Source of the DNA: Antedon mediterranea
Taxonomy: Eukaryota; Animalia; Echinodermata
Length of the DNA stretch: 64,000 bases
NCBI RefSeq assembly: GCF_964355755.1
Contig: NC_092673.1
Location: forward strand, 11,318,948-11,382,947
Reading direction: 5' to 3'
Part shown: positions 2,689 to 63,948 of the stretch, piece after piece
How positions within the stretch are numbered: the stretch's first letter is position 1
How the letters are laid out: every line of letters begins with the position of its first letter
The notes under the pieces: generated by a model
The model's input: the letters and a program-made list of their open reading frames with translations, nothing else
Databases searched by the model: none
Told to the model about the DNA's origin: nothing
Program-made: the position numbers and the translations under genes

Positions 2689-5131
2689 CTTGTTTACTTG
2701 TTTACTTGTTTCCCGTACACTTTCGTCTACGGGATCGAGGCGAAGCACTCAGTGCTTAAAAGCCCCTCTTAGCAATAAAATCATATTCTATATAGGGTGA
2801 AAACTTCAACGGGTGGTTGGACCATGCGACGTTAAGTTTTGCTTTGAACAAGTTCACCGTAGCACATGACACTACATCCGTAGGCAGAGCATTCCATAAG
2901 AGAATAACTCTCCTGGAAAACGTGTCCCTCCTAATATTAAGACGAGAGCTTTTAAACTTGAGTTTATATGGGTGTCCACGGGTCCGAGATTCTAGATCAA
3001 ATTCAAAAAATGTGTTGATCGAAATACGATCGAAACCTTTTACAATCCTAAAAACTTGGATAATATCCGCTCTCTGCCTTCGATATCTCATGGTAGGAAG
3101 ACCAAGAATTCTCAATCGTTGTTCATAAGGCATATTACGGTACCTAGGAATCAATCTTGTTGCTCTTTGCTGGACCTTCTCTATTTCATCCTGATCTCGT
3201 TTTCTAATAGGATTATTAACAGTATTACAATATTCAAACGTTGGCCTGACAATAGACTTTATTCAAGAATTTAAAAGATCTATAAATCATTCCTAGTTTC
3301 TTATTAGCTCTTTTACAAATATCCGCTACATGCAAATTAAATATTAAACTAGGATCAAAGGTAACACCTAGACCTTTCTCCTGCTTTACCTCATGTAGTA
3401 AATTACCAGCCATTGAATACAAGAAATTGGGATTATCACGACCATAATGAAATACCTTACACTTAGTGTCATTAAATGGCAATTGCCAAACATTAGACCA
3501 ATGGGAAGCACTGTCAATGTCTCTCTGAAATAAATCCGCATCCTCAATGTTATTGACCACTCTATACAACTTAGTGTCGTCTGCAAATAAACGAATACTA
3601 GACTCGACAACATCAGGTAAATCGTTAATGACGATTGAAAATAAGATTTGGCCCACAACGCTACCCTGTGGAATTCCACTTAATACTGGAGCCTGTGATG
3701 ATAATTGACCATTGACACTAACTCGTTGTGTTCTATTTGACAAATAATTAGAGAACCATCCTAGTAGATTTCCCGTAATACCAAAACCTTTCAATTTGAC
3801 TAAAAGCCTTTGGTGTGGCACACTATCAAAAGCCTTTTTATAGTCTAAATATACATAATCAAAGCTATCATAGTTATCCAGGTTAGTAGTTCAACTCTTC
3901 AGGACATCAAGTAGTTGTAATGCACATGATCCGCTACCTTGTCTGAATCCAAATTGCTCATTGCACAAAAGACCATTACTCTCAAGATACATTACAAGTT
4001 TATCCCTAATGATCCATTCCATCATTTTCCCTATGACCGACGTTAAACTAACCGGTCTGTAGTTAGCCGGGTCCTCCTTTTTGCCTTTTTTAAATATAGG
4101 TATTACAATTGCCTCCTTCCACGATAGAGGGACCTTCTGATCATTGAATAATCTAGTGAATATTAGACTGAGAGGGTAAACAATTTGATTTAATTTTTTA
4201 ATTCAATTAAAACCCGTGGGTGAAAGCCATCAGGGCCAGCTGACTGATCTATAACTAAGGGCCTGTTTCTATTGAAAAATAAAAAAAGAACGGTTTTTTG
4301 GAAACCGGTTTCGGCTGTTGTTTATAAATAAAGATCGCGTTGCAGCTCAATTTTTACTCCAATAAAACCGGTTCCGTCCATGTGCATTCGTTATGAATGA
4401 CATCATTATATACACCACAATGCAGTTCGTTAGGCGGAAGCGTGATTGGATCGAGGTCATGTTTACTTTTTTTTCGCATAGCGCGATCCCCAAGAAATAG
4501 CATCCATTTCATCATAGAAGGGGGAATTATTACCTGAAACGTTATTGTGGTCCTTGGTTAAAGTATAGGTACTATGATTGGCCTCTGATATTGTCAAGTT
4601 GAACTCGTCTAGCTTTCACACGCTTTACAATATTCTTAAAAACATGTAGGCCTTAGGCCTACGTGAGTCTTTCTTCCGACTCCCGACAAGTCCCCTCATC
4701 TTCTTCCCTTCACATATTTTTTACAAACCTCGTAATGGCATCGGTCAACATTTTTTAGTTAAATAAAATACTCACTATCTAGAGAAATAAAGGTTTGACT
4801 GCGAGTTGACCGCAATCGTCCCAGTGCAGCAGACTGGAGAGTTCAATTTTTGGGGTCAAATTGAGACCGCGATTGTGTTGCAGCTAAAATTTGCTCCACG
4901 GAAACCGGTTTCAGAACGGTTCTTTGCGATCGAGACCGCAATCAATTGGGGTTTTTGAAACCGTTTTTAAGATCGGTTCTTTTTTGTGGTTTTTTGTGGG
5001 GACCCATTTCTGCTGGCAAGAAAAAACGGTTCTTGAAAAGAACGGTATTCAAAACCGTATTCTCTGCTCTATAGAAACAGGCCCTAAGTTAGACAACAGC
5101 TTATGAATATCTTCTACATTAAACTCAATAT
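2689..5131 (-). mobile_element. CR1-group LINE, 5'-truncated and decayed, interrupted by a MITE
   Basis: RT motifs KAFDSVPH, SGIPQGSV, LFADDTKL and C-terminal RTRGHPYKL; frameshifts; (TAAACAAG)n 3' tail at 2689..2712. Confidence 0.88.
4259..5084. mobile_element. PIF/Harbinger-type MITE
   Basis: TIR GGGCCTGTTTCTAT at both ends and TAA duplication; the LINE reading frame resumes across it. Confidence 0.85.
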
Positions 5132-7694: not shown

Positions 7695-7853
7695 CATATC
7701 TGATTGGTCGATTGCGGCCACCATCTTGTTTAAGAATAACTTTTTGAACTGCGATAACATTGTAGTTTACCATCCAGCCTTCGGCTATATAAAATAATAT
7801 ATATCATTGATTTAAAAAACATCTTAGAGGGCGCTACCTACATTAATGTCAAA
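7695..7853 (+). promoter_or_regulatory. Putative QTRT1 proximal promoter
   Basis: CTGATTGG near 7700 and YY1-like motifs (GCCACCATCTTG near 7718; AAAATGGC over the start codon). Confidence 0.35.
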
Positions 7854-8108
7854 ATGGCAGCCCCCATTAGTTCATTGGCGTCCAAACCCACACGTGTTTC
7901 CAAATGTTTATCTCTTCAAATTCTAGCTGAATGTAGTACAACTAAAGCGAGAACATGTAAACTATCTCTTCCACATCAAACTGTTGATACACCTGTATTT
8001 ATGCCCGTAGGAACTCAAGGAACAATGAAAGGTTTAACGGTGGGCCAGCTTGAGGAACTCGATTGTCAAATTATTCTTGGAAACACATATCATCTGGGGA
8101 TGAGACCG
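7854..8108 (+). CDS. QTRT1: QTRT1 exon 1
   Basis: ATG in aaaATGg context; ...[17 protein letters not shown]...[12 protein letters not shown]; donor GTTAGT at 8109. Confidence 0.93.
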
Positions 8109-11100
8109 GTTAGTATTCCTAAATTAGCCATATATTGAGCAAATCTGTGAAAAAATTTAAAAGAAGCTAATTTCAACTGATTTTGGTAGGTATGGGTATG
8201 GACAACTACCAAAAAAATAGAAGGGAAGATAGGGGCTGGGTAAAATTTTTTATCGGAGGTCAAAGTTATTGACCGTTGCTAAATAGCTAGACTTGCCCCA
8301 AGTCTGTATTTATTGTCTTTTTTTTATATTTATTTGTTTTTATTTCGACCGCGATTTTTCTCTGAAAATACAGACTTGTGAAACACGTATCGAAATCGAT
8401 TTGGAGACCGCAAACATCCGATAAGAATGACGTAGGTTATCATACCGTATTTGGCTATATGGGGCGGGCGGTATGTAAATATGGATTTCGAATCAACCAA
8501 TGATCATTTTGTTTCAAAATGAAAAAGATAGAGTACGTACAGTGCTGAATGTACGATCGAGACTGAACAACTGTTGAAATATAAAATCGTGTTGCCAAGT
8601 TGTTTTGTTTATTAATTGTTTAGTCCTGGCCTAGGCCTCCTTCGTAGGGATACTCAACTCGTACGTATGACCTGCCAAATAGAACGCCAATAAAGTACAT
8701 ACCACCACCGACCGGCACACAACAGGGCTACACCGGCACACAACAGGGCTACACCACCACACAGAACAGGACAGGGTATGGCTGGGTGGGAAATAAATTA
8801 AATTATCTCCGCATAATAAATGATCCATTCAATGTTTGATTTGCGGAGAAGCTAGCCTATCATATCAAGACGAGTTTTCATGTTCTTGGGAAAAATCCCA
8901 TCAAATGTTTACCAGACTACTAGGCATATAAAATCATTTCTAGCTTTCAGAAACTGTCATCAATGTACCCAAAGTGCACATTGTCTAAACGTAATATAGC
9001 GCATGCGCATCGTCTTAGATGTTGAGTCTTTGAAATTCTGAAATATGAATATTAAAACAGTGTACGAGTGAGTAGCCAATCACATGCAGCTGAAACTAGT
9101 CAACCGGATAATCGTATGCACCAAGAATTCTTGGTGTCAAACCACGTGACTTGTGCGTGTTTCCCCAGACGGAGTATCCAAACTCAAGTAATACACGTAT
9201 GAAACGCCATATGTGCAAAAATATTTATATTTTTACTAATATTAAGACAAAACTCCGTCTGGAGCCCAGACTACTAAATAGCTATAAATCCTTGTATGAA
9301 TCATATTTCGTCACTAGAATATGGTATCTAATTAAAATTGGTGTCAAAATGTGCAGAATTAAAAAAGGAATAACACTTAAAATAGAAGTCATGTCTTTGG
9401 ATCAAATCTTGACCACTAAAAATGAGGTCAAAAAGTCAAATTTTCTACATAAAATGGCATATAATTGATATTTCAGCAACATATAATGGTATATTGATTG
9501 ATGTTAAAATATGCAGAAAAAAAAGGAAGAAAACTTGGACCAAAAACAAACAACTTAAAAAATGAGGTCAAAGGTCAAAAGTATTTATGAACATGCTATT
9601 ATTAGTGATTGTTTTTTTTTAAATTAACAAAAATCCCCAAAACATTAACTTTGACATATTGAGGCGTACATGGTGTCAAAACGCACAGAATAAATGGGTC
9701 AAACTAAATTTGACAATGACCCTAAACCAAGTCTTGACCACCAAATACAAGGTTAAGATAATGCTGATAATAACTTACAGTAACTATCACCAAAACAAAA
9801 TAAACTAGACATGAAACTCGTCACTTTGACGAGTTAGTTATCCGCACGACAAACGCCACGTGCACGTCATACGTTGGGATATTGCACACAGAAAAAGATT
9901 ATGGCATTATGACCTGAACTGAAGAATATGATATGTTGTTATTGCTGAATTCTGTTATTTTGTGTCATATATAGTATACACAGTATAATCACATACAGTG
10001 TAGAATAGGTGAAATTACGGGACCTGCTATTTATTGCAATTTTTAACATGTTGACGGTTTTAAAATGCGACGGTAGCAATTTCGGAAGGAAATTATCTCA
10101 GCAACAACATATTAACGTGTAGAAGAAATTTTAATACGTGAAATATTAATGCGCGCTCTTTTAAATGTAATGAACTATGACGCAAAATATGAAAATACTG
10201 TACGACTTTTTTTATTTAACTGGCCATATGATGACGTCACAACATCCGATTGGCGAAAAGTTCACATGATTTCGTATCTACAATCCAATAGCTTCCAGAA
10301 AACGTTTTAATCGTGATTATCAGATTTTATTCTTACGAGCTATTACAGATTAAAATTTACTGTAAAGATGAAATTAATGACCCACGTAATTAAAATTTTT
10401 AGGCATGATGACGTTATAAAAATTAAAATATTTTTATCTGATGCTAAAGAAAGTTGATTGACCTAGACAATATATAAATGTAGGAGAAAAAGGAATACAG
10501 ATAAGCGTGATGCGCTCCATTGAATGTGATGAGCAATAACAAAAGAGACAAAAATCCTATATTTTACATTCGTGTGGCCATACGATTACGTCACAATGTT
10601 TTTTTAGCCTTATCGATGCATGATCCGATATCTACAACTCATCAACTTCTAGATTTTGTAATAAAAATAAACGGTTCATGGTTTACTTTAGAAACTATGA
10701 CTGTTTAAAAAAAGACATTATTTTGATGATTTTTTAAGCTTTTTCATAAAAAACGCGTACGAATTGTCTAATTCAACATGTTCGTATGGCGTTATTTAAA
10801 CTTGAAAAGGTCTAAATTGTTTTCAAAATTACTAGGAAAGGCTTGAAAAATATAATTCAAGAGGAAAAAATATGTTTTTAACGCTACGTGTGCACCGCAC
10901 GCGTAAAAAATTGCGCGCCCGTGGGAATTTTTGACATGCTCAAAATGACATGAAACGCGTAAAAAGTTGATTAGAAATTAATTTTGCGCATTTTGAAACT
11001 TTAAATGCGTGTGCGCGCGTAACTTCTTGTGAAACATGCCATTTTTAATCCGTAGAAAGTTTGCCCCTGGTATGACTTAAATTTTGTCAAAGTGTCAATA

Positions 11101-26100: not shown

Positions 26101-29100
26101 AAGTGAATTCCGTGCAGGTACTTGTCCGGGGACAAGTGAAAGAAATTGAAATTCCCTCACCCCTGCAATTCCTGTTGACGTACACGCACCCTCTGATAAG
26201 AAAATACCATGTGCGTTCCTGCATGGTGTAGTCCATTATACGTGTAAAATTAGGGGTGTTTACTTTTAGCACCAAAGTTAAACCTGCACCTCAACTCGAA
26301 GATCGTTGGAGGTATATCATATTTATATTTTATCGCACCCACCTCAATAATCCAGCAGACAGATCATCAAAAAATCTTGTTTAACAACGTCGTACACTAA
26401 ATTACCAAACGCGTTTTTACCGAACTCAAGGAAATGGTATAGTCCACAATACATGTGCAGAAGGCCGGCTAAACACAAAGAGCGAGAAAGGGGTCGGCAC
26501 GTCCGTCCGTGTTTTGAATTCTTATAAATATGGATTATACTAACAAAAAAGCTTCAGAAATCGAAACTCGGAAAATAACTATAATTTATATTCTACTACA
26601 TAATGTCATTGGCTTAATTTTTACCGTGGTTAACACTCTGTGTATGAATAGTTGTAGGTAAGGCCTACAAACAAATTGTTTTGGTATCATGTTTTCTCCG
26701 TCGACTGCTAGCTAAGTAAGGCTGAGTAGCTTGCTGTTGTAAGGGTCTTTATACCTGTTCTGGGGTTCCTTGGTTGGCTTCACGTGCCTTTTTATCGCAT
26801 TATTTGAAACTAAACGAAACATTCAACACAGGACGGTAAACTATAAACGCTGACCATCGTACCTATTTATTATTTATATGGATCGTAAATACACGTAATA
26901 TTTATATAAAATACAAAAAGATGTATTGTAGACAGTCCTACTACTACTACGCAATCTGATGAATAGGGGGAAATCCCCAAAACATTTTGCGGGTAGAATT
27001 TTTTTTTTTTTTTTAATTCCACCCTCAACCGGAAACAAGCTATTTTTTAATTTTGGCCTAGTTATTTTTTAATTTTGGCCTTGGTGCCCCTTCGATTTAA
27101 AACAAATGGCCTTGGTGCCCTCCCATTTGGCCTTGGTGCCCCTAAAATCAATGAAAACTGGAGGCCAAATGGCCTTGCCCCTAAAATCCCCAAATTCGAG
27201 GCCTGCACCTACGACCAAATTCATTGCAGATCTAACAAGCAGTGTGTCACCATCATCCTTTGCTTGGCGTACAGTGATATGCTGTCTTGCCATCTCTGTA
27301 GATAATGTAATGATTTTGGGGTAGAAGGAAAAGATAGAGGGCGGCAGATGGAGGCAGAGTAGGCAGGAGGAGAAGCAGAGAACGGACGTGAGAAAAAGGG
27401 CTGAGAGGGATTTGAGAAGGAAGGCAATGGAGGGTTACCTCGAGCTGCGTTAAAAAGGAGGGAGAGATTGGAGCTGGAAAAGCGGAGAAGCAGGGAGAAG
27501 ACGTGTAAAATAAGTAGAGACATTAGAGAAATTGAAAAACAAAGTGTATAGAAGATTAGAAAGAAAGAGAAAATTGGAGTTGAATAGTAAAAGGAGAGTT
27601 AAGACACAGCAAGTAAGTTAGCCGGAGGGTACAGCATACCGCTTGAGCTGCTGTTTGAGACATAGTGAGCCGGAGGTTGCGCCTACTGTACTGGTTGTAT
27701 CACTATTTGAGACATATTGAGCCGAAGGTTGCGCCTACTGTACTGGTTGTATCACTATTTGAGATAGCTGAGCCGGAGGTTGCACCTACTGGTTGTGTTA
27801 CTGCTTGAGATACAGTTAGCCCGTGGTACACCCTGTGGTTGTGATACTGCTTTGCTGGTGGGTACACCTATTAGCCAGTGGTTAAGACTACTGGTGGTTA
27901 CCCTGTTAGCCGGTACGTGGTTACGCCATTGTTGGTGGTTACGTGCTGTAGGAGGTTACACCATTGTGTTGGTGGGTACGTTGCTGGTTGGAGGTTACAC
28001 CATTGTTGGTGGTTACGTGCTGTGGAGGTTACACCATTGTTGGTGGTTACGTTGCTGTGGAGGTTACACCACTGTTGGAGGTTACACCATTGTTGGTGGT
28101 TACGTTGCTGTGGAGGTTACACCATTGTTGGTGGTTACGTTGCTGTGGAGGTTACACCATTGTTGGTGGTTACGTGCTGTTGGAGGTTACCCATTGTTGG
28201 TGGTTACGTTGCTGTGGAGGTTACACCATTGTTGGTTGTTACGTGCTGTTGGAGGTTACACCATTGTTGGTGGTTACGTGCATGTTGGAGGTTACGCCGT
28301 TGTTGGTGGTTACGCTACTATTGGAGGTTACGTCATTACTGGTGGTTACGCTGTTGTTTCAAATCCGGCGTAATAGCAGAACTAATTAAATTAATTATTA
28401 TAATCGGTTGTTACCAATAATTTGGAATCAAAGAAGAATAAAGGAGGTCACTCCAGAAATTGTAATTGATTTTTTTTGTTTCATTCGAGTGTGCCGCGGT
28501 ACCGCAGACCCTTCCCCCCAAAAGGGAACAAACCCGAGAGCGGATTTTCGTTACAATATCATCGTGATGATGCTTTCTTGTGGTATTGCGCCAGACAACC
28601 TTCTCAAAGGAATCTGCTGCAATTGCAAGAAAGGCGAAAGGCAATGCCAACAAATTCAATAGTGCTACCGTCGTGTTTGATGGCTACGGGGAAGAATCAT
28701 CAATGAAAGACCATGAGCATATACGCCGGATGGCTGGAAAGAAGGTTTCTCCGGACTTGAGTGTCACACTGGACCTGACTGTGTCATGTGATAGAGAGGT
28801 ATTCCTGGCAAATGAGAAGAACAAAGGAGCCTTGATCACGATGATATCTACAGAGATGGCAAGACAGCATATCACTGTACGCCAAGCAAAGGATGATGGT
28901 GACACACTGATTGTTAGATCTGCAATGGATTTGGTCGTAGGTGTTAATTCCCCAGTTGTTGTTGTCGCCCAGGACACTAATATTTTGATTTTGCTCTGCT
29001 ATCATAGACCTATCGACTGTACTAACTTGTATCTTTAAGCAGACTTTGATGGCCTGCGTGTTCATCTTCAAGTTGGAATATGGAGGCATCTGAACACCTC

Positions 29101-44100: not shown

Positions 44101-47100
44101 TGCCGTCAATGATTTTCTAAAATTAGAAAGCGCAGAAAGCTTCCTCCGATGTTTGACAATGAGTTGAGAAGTGTGCTTCAACTCAAAGAAAAGTATTATA
44201 GATATCTGAAAAAAACATAATAATCGGTTAGCCCAAAGTAATTTCAAATGTGCTCGCGCGTCCTTTAAAAAAATGTGCAATAAAAAGTACAAAGATTACT
44301 TGTACTCTTTGGCTAAGCAAATTGTCACTAACAGCTGGATGAAAACTAAATACAAGTCAAATAATCTTCCTTCTGTCATGAGTCACGATAACATTTCATT
44401 CCAGTCTAATTATGATAAAGCTACCACATTTAATTCTTATTTTCATTCTTTTTTCAGTGAGCCTTCTCCGGACGTTCCCCGGGACTATCTAGGTCTTCCT
44501 GACTATGCGGTGGATAACTTGAGTTCTCTGTCTGTGAATCAGCATTCTGTGGAAAAGACACTTAGTAACATTGATATCAATAAAGCTACTGGCATTGATC
44601 AGATTAGTAACGTTGTCTTAAAGGGTGCCTCCTCCTCACTCTCATCCGCTTTGCAAATTGTTTTAGCTATCTATTAATTCTGGTGTTTTTCCTTCATCTT
44701 GGAAACACGCTAATATTGTCCCAATTCACAAGAGTGGTCCCAAAAAACTATCGTCCTATTTCGTTATTGCCTACTATGTCTAAGATTTTTGAGCGCATTG
44801 TGGATGATGGTTTGTCATCACATGTTGCTAATGCTTTAAGTCCTAGGCAGCATGGATTTGTCTCGGGCAGATCATGTCAAACCAACCTTGCACTGCTTCT
44901 TGCTACATCATACGATGCAATTAACAGCAAGAAGCAGTGCGATGTGATTTACATTGATTTCTGTAAGGCTTTTGATTCCGTTTCCCATGATTTGCTTATT
45001 TTTAAACTTTCAAAATTTGGATTATCCGGTTCACTTTTAAGTTGGTTTAAAAGCTATTTAACTAATAGACAACAGCGTGTTGTCATTGGGGGAGAGACAT
45101 CTGATTGGCTCCCTGTGTTATCGGGCGTTCCGCAGGGCTCGATCCTGGGCCCGCTTTTGTTTAATTTATTTATCAACGATCTTCCTTTAAAATTTAATCA
45201 TTCCGAGTCTCTTTTATTTGCTGACGATCTGAAATTGTTTAAAGTGATTACCACTCCACAGGATGCTTTTTCACTTCAGGAGGATCTGGAGGGTCTCGTG
45301 GAATGGACGGAGATGTGGGGGCTAAAACTTAATGCTAATAAATGCAAATATTTATCTATAACACTTAAAAAAAGGCCTGTGCTCTTCAATTATAATTTGA
45401 ATAGACATGATCTTGAGATGGTTTATGTACAGAAAGATTTAGGTATTTTTATCGATAGTAAATTAAATTTTTGTTCACATATTAATCATGTGTTGTCAAA
45501 AGCTAATAGAATGATGGGCTTGATATGGAGAAATTGTAGGTTTATGAACGACGGCAGGGCACTTTTATCTTTATACAAATCTATTATACGTCCTCACCTT
45601 GAATATTGTTCCGTAATTTTCAATTCAATTTCTCCATGTCAGGCCCGTCGAATCGACACTGTTCAACGGAAGTTTGTACGATTCCTGTCTTATAACTGTG
45701 TTAATTTTGCCTTTTCCATTGATTCTGTCAGCAATCGTCGAACGATATCTGATATGGTTTTTTTATATAATATTTTAAATTCTAAATATGACTGTTCAGT
45801 AATTTCACTATTTAGTTTAAATGTCCCTGGTCGTACACGAAATAGACATTTATTGCATATTCCTTTTAGCCATGTCGACTGTACTAAGAGGGGAATTTTT
45901 CATAGACTACCATATACATTTAATAATCTAAATAGCAATCATATTGATATTTTTAATGATAGACTTATTTTAAGAGGACGATTATGTGTTCACTTCTTGA
46001 ACAGCCTGCATAACCTGTTTGATTAATATAAATTTTAAATTGAAATTGTTTATGGCATGCTGATCTATGTTATATATATATATATTTTTTTTTATCTATA
46101 TTTTATTGTTAACCGTTTTTTATGTTGTATTGTTTTTTGTTTCAAACCTGTTAGTGGCAGTATTTATCGCTGTTGGTTTTGACTGAATAAAATAAAAATT
46201 AAAAAAATAAAATAAAAATAATTGATTTAACGTACGCTAATAATCTTTTTTTTACAACATTCTCAATTTGTATGTGGTCATTTAATTTACGAGAAATATG
46301 TACACCGAGATATTATATATATATATATATATATGATTCAGTTTCAGATATAAAGCTATTACCTAATTTCCATTTATCAACATGTTTACCAGTTATCAGT
46401 ATATTTGACTTTTCAAAGTTAAAACATAATTTCCATACCTTAGCAAATTTCCTGCAAGGTCTACCATTCTTTTCATTTCCAGTTCATTGTTAGCTAATAA
46501 TACAATGTCATCAGCTCTCCATACACTATAAAATGGTTTTCGGAAGTCTTAAGAAGGCCATGTATGTATGCTTACCCTGTTGTAAGCAACAAGTTGCTAT
46601 ACTCTTTAGAACAAAGATATGATCTTTGCATCTATACGAAGGTCGAAAGCCTCCCTGGACTTCCGAAAGAATAGCATTGTCTTCAAGATAGAGAAAGATC
46701 TTTTTGGCAACTATCCTATTAAAAATGTTGGATATACAAGAAGTTAATGATATCCCTCGATAATTATTGAAATCATTGCGATCCCCTTTTTTGTAAATAG
46801 AAAAAATTACACTAATGTTCAACTCACTTGGCATTTGTTCTAGTTTTATTTGTAAAAATAGGTCTAATATAAATCTGATTAATTTGTCGCCACCATTCTT
46901 AATTAATTCATTTGTTATATTATCTAGATCTGGTGGCTTATTATTCTTTGCCATTAGGATAGCCTTGTTTAGAATATCATAATCTATCTTAACATCATAC
47001 AAACAATTTTTGTCAACATCTTTATCATATTTACAATTTGTTTTTGTTTGATTTCTAATATTATTAACAAAACAATTGTAAAGGTAAGTACAGCAATCAT

Positions 47101-50100
47101 TAAGATTCATATTGGCTTTGCAAGATTGTTCCAGTAATCTTTTAAAACCTCATTCATTTCTCTTTTTCGACAATGTTTTCACCAAAGTTTCTTGATTACA
47201 TTGAATTACTGTAAATTTACCACCTTTGTTTGCAATTTCAATAGATTTGTTAACATGTTTTTCTATGATTTTGTGAGCAACAAGTTGCTTAACATGTTTC
47301 TGTGTCTCTGTATAATGCTCCCATAATGTAACACCATTATCATAATTCAAAGTATTATTTGTGTTGTTATTATCAGTGCAGTTCCTAATACTGTAGTAAT
47401 TTTATTATTTTTAACCCATGTTCTGTGTTCTCGCGACGCAATTTTCCTTTTTTTGATGGCATCGTCTATCTCTTTGTCAAACCATGGTTTGTTTTTACTA
47501 TTTACATGTCTAATTCCGATACCTTCAGTGGCTGCCTCGATAATTTTTTTCTTCCACAAATCCCATGTAGTATTGATATTCGTTTCATTACTAACATTCC
47601 AGTCGTTAAATTATTCTTCAACTTTTTTTTGATACAAGGAATAATCTTGGTTCTTGGTCCCAAATTGGTTTATTGTGATTACTTTTGATTACTTGATTAC
47701 TATGTTAAGATTATTTAGTGTTATAACACACAATGGTCACTCCCAAAACTAAATTGTCTATGCTCATCAATAATTAGTTTATTTACATAATTTATTAAGG
47801 ATTTTGAGCATAACATGTAGTGTATCGTGCTTTGTTGCGTATATCTTTGCCATGTTATTTCACAATAAAGTGAATAGAGGTCATCAATTGCAATGCTCAA
47901 TTCTTCAATAGTAACATTATCATTTATTATTACACCAATATTATTTATGAATACAGTACTCTTGTTGTCATTCTACTCTACGATCTATGCTAGCTGGGCT
48001 AGTACTACTATTAGCCATAGTGCCATGCTCCTCATCTTCCACTGCCTGTGTTTCTTTTTGTGACTCATTCGATTCACCATTTCAGCTCGGTTAGTCTTAA
48101 TCATCCACTAATCCAAAGACTTACATTTTTTAGTAGCTGCCTTTCTTTTCCTTTCATTTTGTTCTTTTTGACCTATAATAACAATAATTGTAATAAATAA
48201 TGAGTATTGACTAGCCTACGGAACTATGCCTAGACAGACCAGCTATTGTTGGTAGGTTGCTGATGGATGAAGTTTATGTTGTTCACTTTGTTTGTGTGTG
48301 GCGCGCCATCAAACACTCAAATGCAGTGTGTGTGGTCATGCGGTATATTATATACAGTATGCATACACACCTGTTGCAAAAATGTCCACTTTTTCAGGCC
48401 TCTGGGCCTGACATTTTCAAAGTACAAATGCAATTTATGAAGACCTGCCATAGAGGTCTTATAAATTTTCTTTCATATTTCGAAGTATAATAAGTGCATT
48501 TTCCGTGGACCTAGTAACAGCTCTACTTTATTTTTCACAATTTTCTTAGCTCAGTTCCAACCATGTTGGGATGGTTCTGGAGACTTATATATTTTGTATA
48601 AGTTGTTTGTCTGATCTTTGTTTTTAATTGAAAAGCATGTTTTTCCAGTGGATTGCGAGCACATCGGCATATAATGCAAAGGGTGGCACAAAGTGGGGGT
48701 GAAGTATGTTAACAGTATCACATATTCACCGTGTAGAGCTACACTGATACCGTATAGTTGGGTCTCCCTTTTCATAGTTTTAGGTCTCCTTTTTCATATA
48801 GTTGGGTCTCCCTTTTCGTATATTTAGTCTCCTTTTTCATATAGTTGGGTCTCCCTTTTCGTATATTTAGTCTCCTTTTTCATATAGTTGGGTCTCCCTT
48901 TTCGTATATTTAGTCTCCTTTTTCATATAGTTAGGTCTCCCTTTTCGTATATTTAGTCTCCTTTTTCATATAGTTGGGTCTCCTTTTCGTATATTTAGTC
49001 TCCTTTTTCATATAGTTGGGTCTCCCTTTTCGTATATTTAGTCTCCTTTTTCATATAGTTGGGTCTCCCTTTTCGTATATTTAGTCTCCTTTTTCATATA
49101 GTTGGGTCTCCCTTTTTGTATATTTAGTCTCCTTTTTCATATAGTTGGGTCTCCCTTTTCGTATATTTAGTCTCCCTTTTCGTATAGTTGGGTCTCCTTT
49201 TTTATTTGTAGGGTCTCCCTTTTCGTATAGTTGGGTCTTCCTTTTCATATATTTAAGTCTCCTTTTTTATAGTGTAGGGTCTCCCTTTTCGTATAGTGGG
49301 GTCTCCCTTTTCGTATATTTAGTCTCCCTTTTCGTATAGTTGGGTCTCCTTTTTTATAGTGTAGGGTCTCCCTTTTCGTATAGTGGGGTCTCCCTTTTTG
49401 TATTGGGTTTTTGGTCTCTGGTCTTGGGGGTCTAGTTTCCAGATTTTGAAAAAAAAATTTCTAATGTCTGTAAATGTTTATATATATAAATGTATCTGTT
49501 TCATGAATTACTATACTGAAAGATGAGGGCGTATCAATTTGATCTCAATGCATACAATTTAAAACTACTACTATGATGCCATACCATATCAAGTTAGGAG
49601 CTTTTTCTCATTCTTACAGATTTCCGTATGTTTATCGTTTCAAATTATTTTAGTATCACTGAGCGATTTATTATTTATTCCGTAAATCCGAGCCTTTTGA
49701 GATAATAATAAGTTACTGAAAGATGAGGGTGCGTCAATTTTATCTCTGTTGCCCATCAGACAATTGAGAACTAGCCTGGTAGGATTTTACTTAGCGAACA
49801 GTACAATGTTTATGTGGAATTTGCAACATTTTCCAAGCTTCTAAAAGTTATGACAATTGTGTTAATTAACCTTATAATCCACCGTATGACCAATGAATCC
49901 TACAAACAATAATTAGTAGGCAACTTTCAAAACAATGACCTACGATCTTCCTACATAATTATAGGGTATGAAAGGTTCACTATATCACTGGCCAGTTCAG
50001 AATTTTATTTTGTGCCTGTTCATTTATATACATCATCCACAAAATGTCTATATTTTATTTTTATTGGCAGAGATTTGGATCTGCCTTAATTGATACTGGA

Positions 50101-50571
50101 AGTTTAAATCTTCGCAGCAAGACATTTTCAAATGATTTGAGACCAATCGATGAAACATGTTCATGTTCAACATGTAAACGTCACACAAGAGCCTACCTTT
50201 ACTCTATAAATAACAAAGAAACTGTAGCATGTCATCTTATTACTGTTCATAATATTGCATATCAGGTCAGTTCTTCAGTACTTCACATGATTTTATTTTT
50301 CTACAGAAGTGATAACTTTATTAAAACTGCTATTATACTATTCAAAGTCTTTTTTATTATTCTTCAGTTTTCATTTTTTGGGGGACATCTTTTATTGAAA
50401 TTATTAATTTTATTTTTTTAGATGCGTTTGATGAAATCAATACAGAGAAATATTTTAGAAGACACCTTTCCAGAATTTATTCAACAATTTATGAGCAAGA
50501 TGTTCCCATCAAGTAACTACCCTTCTTGGGTTGTGGATTCCCTCTTATCTGTCAATGTTGAACTGTTATGA
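7854..50571 (+). CDS. QTRT1: Queuine tRNA-ribosyltransferase catalytic subunit 1 (eukaryotic TGT); join(7854..8108,33447..33515,34292..34509,35264..35379,39915..40053,40745..40820,50071..50265,50422..50571), 405 aa
   Basis: Exon lengths 255+69+218+116+139+76+195+150 = 1218 nt give an open frame with GT-AG introns of matching phase. TGT motifs: [56 protein letters not shown] and the Zn site CSCSTC..H. Confidence 0.96.
8288..9273. mobile_element. Non-autonomous DNA transposon with TAG..CTA ends and 9-bp TSD (AcademH-like)
   Basis: CTAAATAGC at 8279..8287 and 9274..9282; the empty site is seen in the inverted arm near 29875; imperfect TIRs. Confidence 0.7.
14804..15651. mobile_element. Tc2/pogo-type (Tc1/mariner) MITE
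   Basis: Perfect 27-bp TIR CCGTATATTTCGGTGTATAAGTCGCAC and TA duplication; absent from the sister Helitron copies. Confidence 0.9.
19780..20790 (-). mobile_element. L2/CR1-group LINE RT fragment
   Basis: [39 protein letters not shown]; frameshifted. Confidence 0.85.
20975..21595 (+). mobile_element. RTE-like LINE RT fragment
   Basis: [37 protein letters not shown]; truncated at both ends. Confidence 0.8.
23975..27205. mobile_element. Non-autonomous hAT-like element
   Basis: TIR CAGGCCTC(A/G)AATTT and CACCTA duplication; interrupts Academ sequence that is intact at 28920..28955. Confidence 0.72.
24871..26165. mobile_element. Nested hAT-like MITE
   Basis: Imperfect TIR CAGGGCTGAGCGAA / CAGGGGTGAGGGAA, CAATT duplication and sub-terminal GGACAAG repeats. 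Confidence 0.65.
27615..28360. repeat. Minisatellites (about 55 bp unit, then about 36 bp unit GGAGGTTACACCATTGTTGGTGGTTACGTTGCTGT)
   Basis: Direct tandem repeats; these explain the three overlapping repetitive ORFs. Confidence 0.9.
28570..29380 (+). pseudogene. Academ-like transposase remnant (XPG/PIN-like nuclease and Cys-rich finger)
   Basis: ORFs 28580..29038 and 29162..29380 with deletions and rearrangement; inverted counterpart at 23209..23974 and 27206..27304. Confidence 0.65.
30480..30900. repeat. Degenerate AT-rich tandem repeat
   Basis: Recurring TATCGAATC/TGTCGAATCTTTATATATTATTTACATA units. Confidence 0.7.
32195..32875. repeat. Tandem duplication of about 330 bp
   Basis: 32195..32505 is repeated at 32520..32875, including the hairpin GGTCACAGACTGACATGTCAGTCTGTGACC. 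Confidence 0.85.
33447..33515 (+). CDS. QTRT1: QTRT1 exon 2
   Basis: Acceptor tttcttcag; [23 protein letters not shown]; donor GTGAGT. Not in the ORF track. Confidence 0.93.
34292..34509 (+). CDS. QTRT1: QTRT1 exon 3
   Basis: Acceptor ttgcag; [11 protein letters not shown]...[12 protein letters not shown]...RVEEAMH(R); donor GTTTGT, phase 2. Confidence 0.95.
35264..35379 (+). CDS. QTRT1: QTRT1 exon 4
   Basis: Acceptor ttcttttcag; [38 protein letters not shown]; donor GTATAT, phase 1. Confidence 0.94.
35979..36015 (-). ncRNA. Minimal type I hammerhead ribozyme motif (Penelope-associated)
   Basis: Minus strand reads GCA-CTGATGA-AAGGC tagtgtt GCCC-GAAA-GC-TC-TGC, within a segment shared with the PLE at 2562..2688. 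Confidence 0.6.
36188..37191. mobile_element. Unclassified TIR element of about 1 kb
   Basis: Inverted ends ATCAA(A)GATATTA(T)AGCCGAAGGCTA; ATAAAC lies next to both ends. Confidence 0.55.
37287..37689 (+). repeat. Duplicate of intron segment 34852..35263
   Basis: High-identity direct copy of the 400 bp preceding QTRT1 exon 4. Confidence 0.9.
39915..40053 (+). CDS. QTRT1: QTRT1 exon 5
   Basis: Acceptor ttttttag; [27 protein letters not shown]...KPRYLMGVG; donor GTAAAT. Confidence 0.95.
40745..40820 (+). CDS. QTRT1: QTRT1 exon 6
   Basis: [25 protein letters not shown], containing the catalytic nucleophile Asp; donor GTGAGT. Confidence 0.95.
40975..41260 (-). mobile_element. Second copy of the tRNA-derived SINE
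   Basis: Near-identical head and core to 5517..5724, with a different 3' part. Confidence 0.8.
44040..46220 (+). mobile_element. CR1/Jockey-group LINE, 5'-truncated, with 447-aa RT ORF
   Basis: [47 protein letters not shown]; upstream frameshifts; A-rich tail with AATAAA at about 46186..46220. Confidence 0.92.
46490..47780 (-). mobile_element. Decayed LINE (RTE/RTEX-like) ORF2 fragment
   Basis: [41 protein letters not shown]. Confidence 0.8.
48752..49400. repeat. 43-bp minisatellite built from two related 21-22 bp subunits
   Basis: TAGTTGGGTCTCCCTTTTCGTATATTTAGTCTCCTTTTTCATA repeated; more degenerate toward the 3' end. Confidence 0.93.
50071..50265 (+). CDS. QTRT1: QTRT1 exon 7 (zinc-binding subdomain)
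   Basis: [10 protein letters not shown]...[19 protein letters not shown]...[11 protein letters not shown]; donor GTCAGT. Confidence 0.95.
50422..50571 (+). CDS. QTRT1: QTRT1 exon 8 (last coding exon)
   Basis: Acceptor ttttttag; [24 protein letters not shown]...[17 protein letters not shown] then TGA. Confidence 0.93.
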   Translation: MRLMKSIQRNILEDTFPEFIQQFMSKMFPSSNYPSWVVDSLLSVNVELL

Positions 50572-55830: not shown

Positions 55831-58800
55831 CCATGGATATCTCGCGCATTTACAATTTTCGCACCCCCAGACAGCAACCTGCCTACGTCTCTGCGATTAT
55901 AGCGATATACCTCTTGGCCCGTGGGTAGGTTTTACGTTCGCGTATATTTTCTATGATAGGTATATTGAACTTTAAAAACTTCATTTTTAAATTTGAAAGA
56001 ATGGATTTACACAGTCATCGTACCGGACCTTTTGCAATGTGTTTTTCACACAGTATTTTATTTATGTACCATACAAAATTGAAAAAATTGGCTACCCTAA
56101 ATCTGATTAAAACGGCCTCAAATTACGCTATAACGTGTTGCTTCCGGGGACTCCCCCCCCCCCTGTACCCCCACCAGGGGCCCTTGGCGGCCCCCTGACC
56201 CCCAGCCAAGTGATGCTCACTTCACTCGCATTCCCCCCCCCCCCGTCGGGGAATTTAGCATATCCTCCCCCTCCCCGTCGGGGAATTTAGCATATCCCCC
56301 CCCCCCCTCGGGGAATTTAGCCCCCGCGTCGGAAAGATCCTGGCGCCACCCCTGCGCCAAGTGCGGATAACCAAAAATAAAATTATAAATTGCTACACTA
56401 TTCAGATCGATCCTTTCTGAATAGCTAATTAGAAAGCTAATTAGTTGGCCTTTATTCAAAGGAATGCTCTGGTAAAATTGCATCTGAATTTGTATTAATA
56501 ATTTTAAAAGTATTTTAAATAAATTATTTAAACATTAGTATGAATATTCAAAATCACAATTAAATATAAATCCCTGTTTTTAAAGTAACCAAATACTTCA
56601 AGAAAAGGCTTTATCTGTTTTGTCCCCCAAAAAAAAACATTTAAAAAATCAGAAAACATTGTTTTTCTCTTTTGTCATAATTAATAGAACGCACATTTAA
56701 GACGAGAAATGACCTGGTTTAATGTTGTTAAAGTTATATAGGACTATATGCATTATTTTTACAAAACATCAAAAATTACAGGTCTAGTGTCTTTTTTAAC
56801 AACATCGAGAAAAAAAGAGTACAGTAACTGCATAGAGAAACAAGTTATTTCTCCATAGTAACTGTGACCTACTGCGAACGTGCATATTCAGATCGACAGT
56901 GTGTTTTGCAAGTATGACGTCATGAGCTCAGACATGCATCATTAATGGTTATGTGATATGTACGTCGTCTATAGTTTCTGCCTTAACCTAATAGGAAAAA
57001 AATAATGCGTCCGAATGATGCAGGACTGACACATGGTCCCTGCTTGCTGGAGATGGTAACTTTCATACCGTTGAAATTGAAGTCCCTTAATAGTTATCCT
57101 CTTATTTACCTCCGCCAAGAAGCTATATGTAGTCGATCGTGTGTCTCAAATACTCAAATAATTATTGCACGATCTTTACCAAAATGAAAATATAGATAGA
57201 TATGTGGTGAAGGACCACTCCATTAAATTGGATCGGTCGGTTCTGGTCGGTAAACACTATCCTAACTTGAGCACCCGACTGCAGCCATGTATATGGCCTT
57301 GTTAGTACATTTTCAGACCTGCTAGTGTTAAAAGATAGAGAATTTTCAAAAGCCGGCGAGCAGTCTTAAAGTAACAAGTAAACTGAAATTGCATATTCTC
57401 GAGAACTACTTGTCCAAACAACTTCATTTTTGCACAAGAGGCAAGAGTTATAATTTTTGATTTGTAATTTTAAAACATAATTTGATCAGGGAGTTGTAAC
57501 GCTGATTTGATTTAACGCACAGGTTTTTTTATACGAGTAATTTTTAAAACCCTAGGCCTATTTCAATTCAAATTAACCCGTTACGTGGCGTTGTCGTTGC
57601 TGTTCTATTGTGAGTCAACTGAAACATTGTTAGTTGAAAGGCTGGTTACATAACCATTACACCAAATTCACATACACATGGTTGTAGTAAAATTGATTTT
57701 ATATTATTGTATTTAAACTTTTTAATTTATTTTAATGCAATTTGAAATTTTAAGGATTTTCTTGCGCAAATCATGTTCTCTAACAACATTAATTAATTAA
57801 CAAGAAAATAATGCATATGGTATACTCATTAGGCGAATGTATGTAATGCGTGATTTAAAATAGCGCAAAGATTTTCATTGCTCAATGGAATCTGCACAAC
57901 ATTGTTTAATTTGAAATTGCGCAAGGAAATCTTTGCGCAATTTTAATAACATTTTATTCTTTTACCTGTATTTTTTTGTAAATGCATACGGATTTATATG
58001 AGCTTTGGTTTTATCAAATACGGAAAATAACATGCGATGTTCCAAATTTTCTGCGCAATTTGAATATTGATTGAATTTGCGCAGAAAATCCTCCTCGCAT
58101 AACAGAAATAAATTTAATTAATTAAAATAATATGAAATCAAATAAACTCAGTTCATTATGTTTTGTACTATAGGAGACTTCCACATGCAGCCACCAAAAT
58201 GCGTTGTAATCATGTTCCTAACATTAAAAAATATATACATATATTCAAGGCATTCAGAATTTGAGATGCAAATGCATTGTGTGTAGGCCTATACCTACTG
58301 AGCCATTGGAAATCACATCAAAATGGTACATAATGTAGCCGAGGCTACCAACTATCTAAAAAAACGTTCGTCGTAGTTGTTTTCCAACTATACCAATACA
58401 TTTCTCGTGAGCAACGGAATCGTCGGAAGTTCGAAAGTCCGTAGTTTTAGGTGATGAAATACCTACACCGTTATCTATACACCCATCACCCCACTCCCAT
58501 ATTTAGACAGTATTCTGAACAGCTGATGACCCCTCTGTGTTATCTCCTTGTTGATAAACTGGACCATTAATATATAAATGACTAACCTCAGTGACCGATA
58601 CTGTGGTCTATAATTAGAAACCGTTATTTACATTGTTGCTATATCCAATATGTGTAACCAATAGCATTTCATCTAATTTTAGAGCTATAGGCCTACGATA
58701 TTTTATCTTGTTAAGTAAATTACTGTTAATCAATCGTGTGGTTATTTATATCGAACTGATCATCACGATACTCTATGCCAATACTATGTTTTTATAATTA

Positions 58801-60078: not shown

Positions 60079-60179
60079 ATGAGCTCAATCCGTTACAGCA
60101 CAAGACTGCTACAGAAAACCAAAGATGTGGTAAAGTGTCAATTCAAACGAGCTGTCAGTAACACTACTTCAAATACAAG
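60079..60179 (+). CDS. HMGR-like exon 1 (putative transit peptide)
   Basis: MSSIRYSTRLLQKTKDVVKCQFKRAVSNTTSNT(R); AG|GTATTA donor, phase 2; TATA- and CCAAT-like motifs upstream. Confidence 0.62.
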
Positions 60180-63100
60180 GTATTATAGGCCTAAAGTATG
60201 TCTATTTAATAAGTATAGAGTTTGTAAAAGTTGTTTGAAACGAATTGGGCAACAAAGTGGTTTTACTTCTAAAACAGATACTGTACTTCCAGTCACTGAT
60301 TTTTCAATCACATAAAATATTTATATTAGTTAAGCAATAAATAAATAAAATACCGTAAACGTTATTTTAGATAATGTATTTTTTATTAAAGGCAAATCAG
60401 GTACCGTATGGTCACGCTCACAGGGAATGATTTGCACGTTATCTATACCTTGTGTTTATTTATAGATATGTATATAGTTGGTCACTATAAGCTAAACAAT
60501 AATGTTATAAGTTGCCAAATCAATATGTTGCAGAATTTGCTTGTGGGTGTGTCTTACCGGTCCGGTTTTTGTTTTGTTTTTGATACCATGAAATATGAAA
60601 TTTGAAAAAAAATTCAATATGTTGAGAAGATCATATATACCAGATTTTTCATTTTTTTGACTCTTTGATAAACTTTATGAACTTCGACTTATTCGATATC
60701 CTTGTTAGAAATGGAGTTGCAACACAGAGTAGAACAAGGTCGACCCTAGTTCAAGAGAAAGGAACACAAACAAGGTAGGCCTCCGTCCGTAGCCACAAAC
60801 AAAATGTATAACCTAAAACTAATGCGTCTCGGGATATATTAATTTTTACCTCTGGTTTAATATGATAATGGATGAAACGTTATAATACATTTTTTTGGGA
60901 AACTGTATAGGGCCTATACCGTAAATCTTCTAATAGTAACCCACACTCTAATAGTAACCCCCCTTTCTATTAGTAACCACCTTATAAGTCAATCTATAAT
61001 AATAACCCACTACTATAATATAAACCCATAGGGGTTTGTTGAGCCGTGAATGTGTGCAAAAAGTCACATTTGTGCAACCACCAAACATGCACCCTCAAAT
61101 GTGCAAATTTGTAAAAATGTATAATCCAGTAATGTGCAAAAATCACGCCGTTAAATGTAAAAACGATTAGTTTTGACGTTAAAATGTGCAAATGTGTAAC
61201 ACGTGTTCGCTGCTTGCTGGAGATTTCCTTTAAAATACAGACAACTTTTTTATATTATTTATTTAAAATGTATTTCTGTTATGCGCAGTTTATGTAATTT
61301 TTAATTGTGAGGATTTTCTTACGCAAATCATTTTCTTTAACAAAATTAATTAACAGGAAAATAATGTAGATGAAGTAGGTATATGAATATGGTATAATCC
61401 TTAAACGAATGTAAATGTTATGCATGATTTAAAATAGCTCAAAGATTTCGTTGCGCATTTGAATTTGCGCAAGAAATATTTGCGCAATTTTATTCTTTTA
61501 CCTGCATTTTTTATAAATGTATACATATTTTAATGAGCTTTGGTTTTATCAAATGCTGAAAATACCATGCGCAATTTGAATAGTGCTCAAGAAAATCGTC
61601 AATGAATTTCAAATTGCATAAATTTCAATTATCGCTCATAACAGAAATACATTAATAAAATAATATAAAATCTAATGAACTCAATTATGTTTTGTAAATT
61701 TCGTTTAAAATAAGAGAACAACTACAAGGGACTTAAATTTCAACGGTATGGAAGTTATCATTTCCAGAGAAGCAGCGACCACGGACATTCTCGGACATAT
61801 TCGGACATTCGGATTGTGTTTTTTCTTTCTTCAAAAACAGATTATTTCAGCCTGTACTACAATATATGTAATGCCATATCTTGAAAACATTGTTAGAATT
61901 AGGTTATAATTTTTAATAAACGATTTTGTTTGAGAAAAAATGATTTGCAAATTTGTAGAATTTCATTTGCACATTTTTAGACATTTGCACATTCAACGTC
62001 AAAACTAATCGTTTTTACATTTAACGGCGGGATATATGCACATTAGTGGATTATACATTTTTACAGATTTGCACATTTGAGGGTGCCATGTTTGCACAAA
62101 TGTGGTTGTTTGCACAAATGTGACTTTTTGCACATTTCACGGCTCAACAGGGTTACTATTAGAGTCACAAAAACTATTGACAAAATGATTGGCTGTTTAT
62201 GATGCAGCCGTATTTTGAAAATAAGGAGATAATTTGCATGTTTATCTCGGGGAGTGGGTGAAGATTGAATGTTTTTGAGTTTATAAAATATAGTTTGTTT
62301 ATTTGTACTGTTTTATTAGTTTTACTATGAGTACCGTAAGTAATGTATTTTACTCTATAGGGATTCAACTCAAGGAAGTCGGAAGGATGAAGGGTTTCGT
62401 ATATTGCATGAACATAAACGCACATCAACATCTCTCAATGAGCTTGTAGATAACTACGGTCCTGAAGTATATGAAAAGAATTGTGAAAACTTCATCGGTA
62501 CTGTCAAAATACCTACAGGAGTGGTATCTATCAAAGTCAACGGAAAACACGCAAATGGCACGTATACTGTTCCCATGGCAACGACAGAAGGGGCACTAGT
62601 GGCATCATACAATAGAGGCACTAAAGTTATCAATGAAGCAGGTGGAATCAATGCTGCTTTTATTCGTCAAAGAATTGTCAGAGCACCATTATATGAATTT
62701 AACAGTGTTGATGATGCATCAAAGTTCCAGGAATTTTACAGCCAGTCAGACACGTTTAAGCGAATGAAAGAAATAGCAGAGAAGACAACACGTCATGGTA
62801 AACTGCACAAAACAACCTGTCATGTCCACGGAAGTACGGTACACACACGAATGAGTTACTCAAGTGGAGATGCATCTGGACAAAACATCGTAACGTTTGC
62901 TACAGAACCTGTCTGTAAATGGATACAGAAGAACTCTCCAATTACTCCGACGGCTTGGTACATCGACAGTGGATTTTCCTTGGACAAGCGAGCTGGTTCG
63001 GCCAACGTAATAGACGGTCGTGGATCATATGTCACTGGGGAGGTAGTGATTCCAAGAGAGCTAATTGAGAAGAGGATGCATACATCTGGTAAGACAATGC

Positions 63101-63948
63101 ACGACGAAAGTATATTGTATAGTCCAAGGAAACGAGTTGTGTCATCATGACGATAGAGGATCTCTTTCAGTTTTTACATGGAAAACATTTTTTTTTAAAG
63201 AAATTAATAAGTTACAGTAATTCAGTCTTGTTATTGTCATGTTTAATTTTGAGTAATATGAATTAAACAATTTTAATATTATAGTTTTTTCTTACAGTGG
63301 AAATCATTCAGGATTTGAATTGGCATCAAATTGACAATATATTCGCCGGATCACAAGGTAATTGTTTTAACATAACTCTAATATTTTACCATAGATGACC
63401 CTTAATCTTATGTCAACGAAAATCATTTGTCCTTTTTTTATTTTACAGCTTTAAATTGTCAAGCATCTAACGCTCTAGCAGCCATTTTCATTGCTACTGG
63501 ACAGGATCCAGCATGCGTTGCCGAATCACACCAAGCATATACACAATACAAGAAAACAATTGATGGTGATCTAAAAATGGTCTGTACACTACCATCACTT
63601 ATGATCGGTACCATTGGAGGTGGAACTTCCCTACCTAGTCAGAAGGTAACATTTTATATACAGTATATTATATTGTTTGTAGTATTGAAAAACGGTGCTT
63701 GTGACTCTCAGAAATAGACAAATAATGATTATTGTTATTAATCATTACAAATTTCATCTACTTCATTCCTTTTCCAGACATGTTTAGAAATAATAGGCAC
63801 TCATGGAATCGGAACGATGCCAGCATTTGCCGAAGTGATATTGGGTGTTGTCATGGGAGGAGAACTATCATTGATTTCAGCAATGGGCGCTCAACATTTT
63901 GCTTATGCTCACAAGAAGCATGCTCGTGGACCTAAGACGGTTGCGTAA
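60079..63948 (+). CDS. Soluble class I HMG-CoA reductase-like protein, bacterial-type motifs, putative N-terminal mitochondrial presequence; join(60079..60179,60709..60774,62361..63088,63298..63357,63449..63645,63778..63948), 440 aa
   Basis: Exon lengths 101+66+728+60+197+171 = 1323 nt give an open frame with GT-AG introns. Motifs: CENFIG, PMATTEGALVASYNRG, GDASGQN, DKR, ATGQDPA, GTIGGGT, GELS, AHKKHAR. No transmembrane region. Exons 1-2 rest on splice signals and phase only. Confidence 0.85.
60709..60774 (+). CDS. HMGR-like exon 2
   Basis: Acceptor cttgttag; NGVATQSRTRSTLVQEKGTQT; AG|GTAGGC donor; symmetric phase 2-2 exon. Confidence 0.58.
61037..62149. mobile_element. TGT..ACA foldback MITE with long TIRs in HMGR-like intron 2
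   Basis: Imperfect TIRs of about 150 bp starting TGTTGAGCCGTGAA, 5-bp TSD GGGTT; related pieces at 41288..41750 and 57720..58170. Confidence 0.8.
62361..63088 (+). CDS. HMGR-like exon 3 (N-terminal part of catalytic domain)
   Basis: Acceptor tactctatag, in frame with ORF 62404; ENFIG, ATTEG, GDASGQN and DKR motifs; donor GTAAGA at 63089. Confidence 0.92.
63298..63357 (+). CDS. HMGR-like exon 4
   Basis: Acceptor tttcttacag; VEIIQDLNWHQIDNIFAGSQ; donor GTAATT; phase 1-1. Confidence 0.85.
63449..63645 (+). CDS. HMGR-like exon 5
   Basis: ALNCQASNALAAIFIATGQDPACVAES...LPSLMIGTIGGGTSLPSQK; donor GTAACA. Confidence 0.92.
63778..63948 (+). CDS. HMGR-like exon 6 (last coding exon)
   Basis: Acceptor tttccag; TCLEIIG...GGELSLISAMGAQHFAYAHKKHARGPKTVA then TAA; contains the His at the catalytic position. 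Confidence 0.9.
   Translation, partial: TCLEIIGTHGIGTMPAFAEVILGVVMGGELSLISAMGAQHFAYAHKKHARGPKTVA

Follow-up and report, generated by a model that had tools for sequence, protein, structure and literature searches.

How does an animal come to carry an enzyme gene of bacterial type, and what might that enzyme do? The question is raised by a gene of the crinoid Antedon mediterranea that lies in a 64,000-nucleotide stretch of contig NC_092673.1 (RefSeq assembly GCF_964355755.1, positions 11,318,948 to 11,382,947, forward strand), called here the window, in whose coordinates all positions are given. A sequence-only reading had described an intact 440-amino-acid gene with five GT-AG introns, encoding a bacterial-type 3-hydroxy-3-methylglutaryl (HMG)-CoA reductase (HMGR) acquired by an old bacterium-to-animal transfer and offering a second route into mevalonate. 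Splicing the six exons reproduced that gene, with a frame of 440 aa open throughout, and the six motifs quoted in that reading are all present in the protein. The interpretation we propose, to which we give about an even chance, is that the gene encodes a soluble enzyme of HMGR fold belonging to the FcrA clade of acyl-CoA reductases, which, with NADPH as reductant, would turn an acyl-CoA (not HMG-CoA) into its alcohol, would act in mitochondria and would have entered a crinoid ancestor from a protist.

The protein is probably not a canonical HMG-CoA reductase

The HMGR fold was recovered on the model of the orthologue from Anneissia japonica (predicted local distance difference test (pLDDT) score 83.7; template modelling (TM) score 0.72 to 6hr8; Foldseek E=7e-40), and the core is 36% identical to insect HMGCR. 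All four catalytic residues are kept (E132, K265, D338 and H429, corresponding to human E559, K691, D767 and H866), as are R163 (human R590) and D264 (human D690). PF00368 was the only domain found, with no sign of the sterol-sensing membrane domain that the insect and chytrid controls both showed. NCBIfam prefers its class I NADPH HMGR model, with the orthologue below the cut-offs (290 bits vs 441.8 for TIGR00533 and 230 vs 778 for TIGR00920).

In 2025 Grossi et al. (PMC11948995) described FcrA, a clade of HMGR class I-related fatty acyl-CoA reductases, in archaea and bacteria, and they already noted eukaryote members; the available text mentions no metazoa, crinoid or echinoderm. There, Pb-FcrA is NADPH-dependent and reduces fatty acyl-CoA, not HMG-CoA, three pocket changes are named, with the K735 site generally small, and the modelled pockets are smaller in 12 of 59 members, 'mainly in eukaryotes', and fit C14 in 47 of the 59.

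We compared these sites in a 64-row alignment anchored on insect HMGCR and made up of 8 canonical and 56 clade rows. The S684 site is Ser in 8/8 canonical rows, acidic in 50/56 clade rows and Asp (D258) here. At the K735 site Lys occupies 8/8 canonical and 0/56 clade rows; W307 stands there in the crinoid protein, to within one or two residues, and its exon-4 helix holds no Lys. The L862 site is Leu in 6/8 canonical rows, aromatic in 56/56 clade rows and Phe (F425) here, while Gln (Q323) stands at the H752 site and Gly (G260) at the N686 site. Some of the human site numbers used here are not printed in PMC11948995, where the residue that we call K735 appears as Lys795.

In the trees described below, a non-canonical clade (support 100) holds the crinoid rows, PF25653-bearing proteins and one WS/DGAT fusion, and clade relatives are fused to AMP-binding, acyl carrier protein (ACP), acyl-CoA-binding protein (ACBP), DUF3419, phosphotransferase or WS/DGAT domains. 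By tree and residues the crinoid gene belongs to this putative FcrA clade. The protein is thus probably not a canonical HMG-CoA reductase, and mevalonate synthesis, the role first ascribed to it, is unlikely because FcrA-like residues have taken the place of those that bind HMG, and the tested FcrA member is inert on HMG-CoA.

Some features sit badly with this assignment. The alignment has a gap of one or two residues near W307, the K735 site is bulky in the crinoid protein and generally small in FcrA, and the clade was recognised through its PF25653 and WS/DGAT members, Pb-FcrA and N. pharaonis FcrA not being among the tree rows.

Which acyl-CoA the enzyme would reduce is a further question. 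A long-chain fatty acyl-CoA reductase working exactly as Pb-FcrA does, and feeding wax-ester or ether-lipid synthesis, would fit the clade and its diagnostic residues, the acyl-CoA-binding fusions and peroxisomal-type ends found among protist relatives, and the C14 fit of most modelled members. In animals, however, the alcohol for ether lipids is supplied by peroxisomes, and the crinoid proteins carry no peroxisomal-type C-terminal signal, unlike three protist members. Moreover, the exon-4 helix is bulky or polar (W307, H308, D311, N312) at positions that are small or aliphatic in most bacterial members, and the modelled pockets are smaller in most eukaryote members (PMC11948995). We therefore regard the long-chain activity as unlikely, if far from negligible, and, because of this helix and these smaller pockets, our guess is that the substrate may be a short or polar acyl-CoA rather than a C16 chain.

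A true HMG-CoA reductase, serving a second, mitochondrial mevalonate route such as the one by which trypanosomatids reach mevalonate, or replacing a lost canonical HMGCR, would agree with the fold, the four catalytic residues, R163 and D264, but is very improbable given that the three HMG-selecting sites are changed in FcrA fashion, that H752 is replaced by Gln, that the tested clade member does not act on HMG-CoA and that no mevalonate-pathway gene was found among the 61 open reading frames (ORFs) scanned, of 92 picked, around relatives at 22 bacterial loci. All echinoderm classes are able to make some sterol from acetate (PMC6627624), which suggests that a normal HMGCR exists.

Relatives among protists and prokaryotes

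The matches listed were the best 120 of 593, 120 of 287, 120 of 1641 and 150 of 2128, and names were looked up for 28 proteins. After the crinoid proteins the top matches listed were prokaryotic or unnamed, at no more than 46% identity over the whole core, and the only named canonical enzymes among the best 120 of 1641 long-protein matches were from an insect and a chytrid. Protist members of the clade include Acrasis kona KAL0490829, which has an ACBP domain, a Clastostelium recurvatum protein from EukProt, and EukProt Clim_evm48s147, which from its prefix we take to be the unicellular holozoan Corallochytrium limacisporum. Heterolobosean-side members (P0170, P0138, P0375, L112) are fused to an ACBP domain, and three protist-side members (P0391, P0393, P0441) end in the peroxisomal-type signals AKL, AKL and SKL, which would be consistent with a supply of fatty alcohol for ether lipids in those protists.

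GTDB gave no match by single-protein scan and matches by alignment-based scan. Around the closest prokaryotic relatives (22 loci sampled from 80) a dikinase occurs at 15/22 loci, DUF3419 at 8/22 and a UbiA-like gene at 7/22. The relatives head this recurring set of UbiA-like, PPDK_N/PEP-utiliser dikinase and DUF3419 genes (L011, L023, L027, L031, L057, L063, L075 and others), which is possibly an alkyl-diphosphate route to ether lipid. One of these loci, L057, comes from a bin labelled Halobacteriales and carries a bacterial-type member with the dikinase/DUF3419 set, so it may be misbinned or a case of transfer. Of 80 metagenome loci 76 were usable; none of these gave a sister to the crinoid rows, and the sole one that has Gly260 matches a member of the ACBP-fusion group at full identity. 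Atlas searches returned PF00368 clusters only, whose taxa were uninformative on origin.

A eukaryote is the likelier immediate source

Model-rich trees were built on subsets of 95, 64, 45 and 38 rows, the last under LG+C20 with posterior mean site frequencies (PMSF). Partial domains (51 of 509) were left out; 48 of them were checked by BLAST and none was nearest a crinoid row. Approximately unbiased (AU) tests were built on short constrained searches. Grouping with canonical eukaryote HMGR, for which the constraint comprised 2 cellular eukaryote rows and 1 giant-virus row, was rejected (p=0.0007, delta lnL 53, three constrained searches), and the initial claim, that the protein stands nearer to class I HMGR-like proteins of bacteria than to the HMGCR of animals, was upheld.

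In the best 45-row and 38-row trees the crinoids fall in one eukaryote clade with amoebozoan, heterolobosean and holozoan proteins. In the 38-row tree this clade (91/92) is nested in bacteria (100/99), the crinoids are sister to one protist group rather than inside it (80/75), and the holozoan protein joins the amoebozoan side, not the crinoids (95/83). The eukaryote clade persists once the motif columns, which include the Gly260 motif, are removed (SH-like approximate likelihood ratio test, 88). Rare residues mark it as well: Gly at 260 occurs in 25/26 eukaryote-clade rows vs 1/405 others, and His at 346 in 3/5 crinoid and 4/6 protist rows vs 0.5% of others, while two control groups of other long-branched rows share none of these residues. 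No bacterial sister to the crinoids appears in a tree of about 620 rows. Among the named minority of the best 120 or 150 matches listed, no animal other than crinoids was found in this clade. On this evidence a eukaryote is a likelier immediate source than a bacterium, and we tentatively favour, at somewhat less than an even chance, a transfer from a protist to crinoids. The sequence-only reading had contrasted its bacterial transfer with a broadly inherited eukaryotic paralogue clade; what we found is one eukaryote clade, patchy rather than broadly inherited.

Several results count against a protist donor. FastTree and two quick trees place the crinoids basal and apart from protists, branches are long in all the eukaryotes, so attraction between them is possible, and the AU tests keep crinoids with Vibrio-type bacteria (p=0.22), crinoids outside or basal (p=0.26, 0.17) and crinoids with the holozoan protein (p=0.15; a first run gave 0.045, and that rejection was dropped). 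A heterolobosean-group sister was also kept (p=0.22). The crinoid paralogues have diverged deeply, and the family may be older than crinoids.

A serious alternative, though on the doubtful side, is that this is an old eukaryotic gene, acquired early from bacteria and passed down through holozoans, and that crinoids retained it while all other sampled animals lost it. The eukaryote clade roughly follows the species tree, with the heterolobosean group outside and the amoebozoan, holozoan and crinoid rows inside; the crinoid-holozoan grouping survives the AU test, the paralogue splits are very deep on a long stem, and the two rare residues are common to the clade. Such a history would nevertheless need many separate losses across animals, the holozoan protein sits with the amoebozoan side, no other animal is among the named clade matches listed, and the peroxisomal-type signal ends three protist members and no crinoid ones.

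It is rather improbable, in our judgement, that crinoids took an FcrA-type gene directly from a bacterium and resemble the protist members through long-branch attraction and convergent pocket changes. This reading draws on the prokaryotic or unnamed status of the best non-crinoid BLAST matches listed, on bacterial-sister trees that survive the AU test, on the occurrence of Gly260 beyond the eukaryote clade, in about a dozen distant rows that are mostly unnamed, and on a 728-nt core exon free of introns. It conflicts with the eukaryote clade, which has the best likelihood and survives motif-column removal, with the absence of a bacterial sister from the 620-row tree, and with the weak rejection of a Bacteroidota/Omnitrophota-side sister (p=0.03). 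The transfer from a bacterium first proposed for this gene is weakened by the best trees, which join the crinoids with protists, though the AU test still allows it.

A viral vector was considered and rejected, both viral matches grouping with canonical HMGR. One, in a giant-virus bin (L082:2818-4092), is a canonical eukaryote-type HMG-CoA reductase that stands beside fungal and animal enzymes; the other, on a viral contig (L081:1573-3909), joins a part that by eye is phage-tail-like at its N terminus to an archaeal-type HMGR fragment, and is possibly a chimeric assembly.

A crinoid gene family with presequence-like N termini

The named matches hold three Antedon and four Anneissia genes: the gene, its orthologue and five crinoid paralogues. 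The crinoid rows are monophyletic with support 100 in every tree. Paralogues are 1.4-1.7 substitutions per site apart, compared with 0.21 for the orthologue pair. In two paralogues annotated as truncated, homology stops where introns 3 and 4 of the Antedon gene lie, and a third has isoforms that diverge at the intron-4 position; because of this, introns 3 and 4 appear, from RefSeq models rather than genomic DNA, to be older than the crinoid duplications. In Anneissia XP_033108485 the catalytic Asp-Lys pair, the catalytic His and the NADPH-side Arg are gone; this protein also has a Lys-rich N terminus, an acidic tail and three splice isoforms, and is likely a pseudo-enzyme.

Basic, acid-poor, presequence-like N termini are found in 4/7 crinoid proteins (as annotated) vs 0/220 single-domain homologues. 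The first 35 aa of the Antedon protein include 8 K/R, 1 acidic residue and 10 S/T, encoded mostly in exon 1, which the Anneissia orthologue matches, and the fold model of the orthologue has residues 4-26 in a helix and disorder after it (pLDDT <50 at residues 24-60). As judged from sequence and model, the N terminus is probably a mitochondrial presequence and the enzyme imported.

The proposed pathway goes beyond the gene structure, fold, clade, residues and crinoid paralogue family, which the analysis showed. The basic N-terminal helix would direct import into mitochondria and then be cut off, and the enzyme would oligomerise as HMGR does. E132, K265, D338 and H429 would support two hydride transfers, from acyl-CoA to aldehyde to alcohol with release of CoA, while D258, F425 and the absence of a lysine at the K735 site would shut out the HMG carboxylate and branch. 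The gene would have passed from bacteria to protists in one transfer and then from a protist to a crinoid; introns 3 and 4 would have been present ahead of the duplications, which would have split the family into three to four or more paralogue lines; the line of XP_033108485 is the one that has lost catalytic residues.

Comparison with known enzymes

The crinoid protein resembles FcrA in clade, fold, catalytic Glu/Lys/Asp/His, the acidic S684 site, the lack of Lys at the K735 site and the aromatic L862 site. Unlike FcrA, its gene is an animal one, bears introns and is duplicated, it lacks the N-terminal Lad domain (PF25653) and its N terminus is presequence-like; the bulky or polar exon-4 helix, the N686-site Gly and the H752-site Gln suggest another acyl group. 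With canonical class I HMGR (animal HMGCR, archaeal 6hr7) it shares the fold (TM about 0.72) and catalytic residues, but not the sterol-sensing membrane domain or the HMG-binding residues. Protist FcrA-like proteins share with it one clade in the best trees, Gly260, mostly His346 and 39% identity, yet they have an ACBP fusion or a peroxisomal-type C terminus where crinoids have the predicted N-terminal presequence. The bacterial set of HMGR-like, UbiA-like, dikinase and DUF3419 genes, an operon of unknown lipid pathway, holds the closest prokaryotic relatives (at most about 46% identity), whereas no partner from this set was found among the five window ORFs scanned.

We found no published report of a crinoid or animal FcrA, or of a bacterial-type HMGR in animals, in a search that covered subscription literature thinly, and the available parts of PMC6627624, PMC11052028, PMC9181382, PMC7351957 and PMC13079724 hold nothing bearing on the crinoid gene. 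An intron-bearing, duplicated, probably mitochondrial FcrA in one animal class would, if true, be the first animal example met in our searches. A wider proposal, which we put slightly short of even, is that crinoids alone among animals have a laterally acquired and expanded family of mitochondrial acyl-CoA reductases of HMGR fold, of protist or bacterial source, with alcohol-forming chemistry unique among animals and acting on an acyl-CoA that is perhaps short or charged and tied to a plankton diet or peculiar metabolites. Either origin would be unusual, since transfer from a eukaryote to an animal is rarely shown, and likewise retention in one class with loss elsewhere. Several crinoid genes annotated 'HMG-CoA reductase-like' are probably not HMGR, which affects mevalonate gene counts in echinoderms. 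The substrate of the enzyme described here can be tested directly, since the protein is small and soluble.

Gene model

The introns measure 529, 1586, 209, 91 and 132 nt (phases 2, 2, 1, 1, 0), and Pfam HMG-CoA_red spans exons 3, 5 and 6 in that order (Table 1). The Anneissia japonica orthologue XP_033103802.1 is 78% identical and matches all of exons 1-6 (by tblastn for exons 1, 2, 4, 5 and 6), with exon 4 at 90% identity. Exon 3 is 100% identical to Antedon mediterranea RefSeq XP_071948691.1 (425 aa). Over 63298-63448 that model omits exon 4 and instead reads five codons of intron 4, likely an annotation error; the six-exon model is better because the Anneissia orthologue contains the exon-4 peptide.

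Confirmation of the splice junctions by reads, a check suggested at the outset, was reached in part. In run X8 one 242-nt contig covers 141 nt counted from the exon-5 start, and its depths by successive bin are 42 (exon 3), 0 (intron 3), 59 (exon 4), 130 and 11 nt. These depths, from a run that carries no RNA label, fit a spliced exon 3-4-5 transcript and so appear to support introns 3 and 4; for introns 1, 2 and 5 the support comes from the Anneissia orthologue. Run X9 was rejected as a sign of expression, since it also covers intron sequence. Going by the human exon borders, none of introns 3-5 would coincide with an intron of animal HMGCR.

Table 1 Features of the crinoid gene and its surroundings in the window
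Feature	Position	Strand	Content
Exon 1	60079..60179	+	Start codon; bulk of the predicted mitochondrial presequence (aa 1-34)
Exon 2	60709..60774	+	Linker; 71% identity with Anneissia orthologue; low-confidence part of fold model
Exon 3	62361..63088	+	Catalytic E132, NADPH-domain motif, D258 (human S684 site), G260, catalytic K265; Pfam PF00368 E=2e-59
Exon 4	63298..63357	+	Pocket-lining helix; W307 at or beside human K735 site; absent from RefSeq model
Exon 5	63449..63645	+	Q323 (human H752 site), catalytic D338, H346; Pfam E=2e-22
Exon 6	63778..63948	+	F425 (human L862 site), catalytic H429, stop codon; Pfam E=2e-08
Host repeat with long inverted arms, in intron 2	61050..62134	.	Non-coding, about 1.1 kb
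TGT-family (QTRT1-type) host gene, late exon	49972..50418	+	Pfam TGT; about 9.7 kb upstream of exon 1
TGT-family (QTRT1-type) host gene, first exon	within 7758-8135		Pfam TGT

Host DNA and surroundings of the gene

Depth is flat across the gene in DNA runs of two organism codes. Exon GC is 0.37-0.44, with 0.33 at third codon positions (GC3), and the whole window is at about 0.35. Contamination was therefore rejected, on the flat DNA depth, the host repeats in intron 2, the host-like GC, the introns and the identity to RefSeq; the view that the gene is host-integrated, taken from the start, is borne out by these and by the Anneissia orthologue and the QTRT1-type gene upstream. The exon-1 differences listed for run X5 are synonymous in 3/3 cases.

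The intron-2 repeat has 95-nt arms that are 94% complementary and outer arms of 28-31 nt, and its depth in DNA runs lies far above that of the exons, marking it as high-copy; it appears to be of the miniature inverted-repeat transposable element (MITE) kind. An AT-rich stretch resembling it lies near 58000-58150.

The two TGT exons (Pfam E=7e-20 and 1.5e-19) belong to a QTRT1-type gene more than 42 kb long (window 7758-50418), whose final exon was not located. Its region contains reverse-transcriptase remnants at 44611-46026 (+) and 2756-3890 (-), and a low-complexity repeat near 27768-28420.

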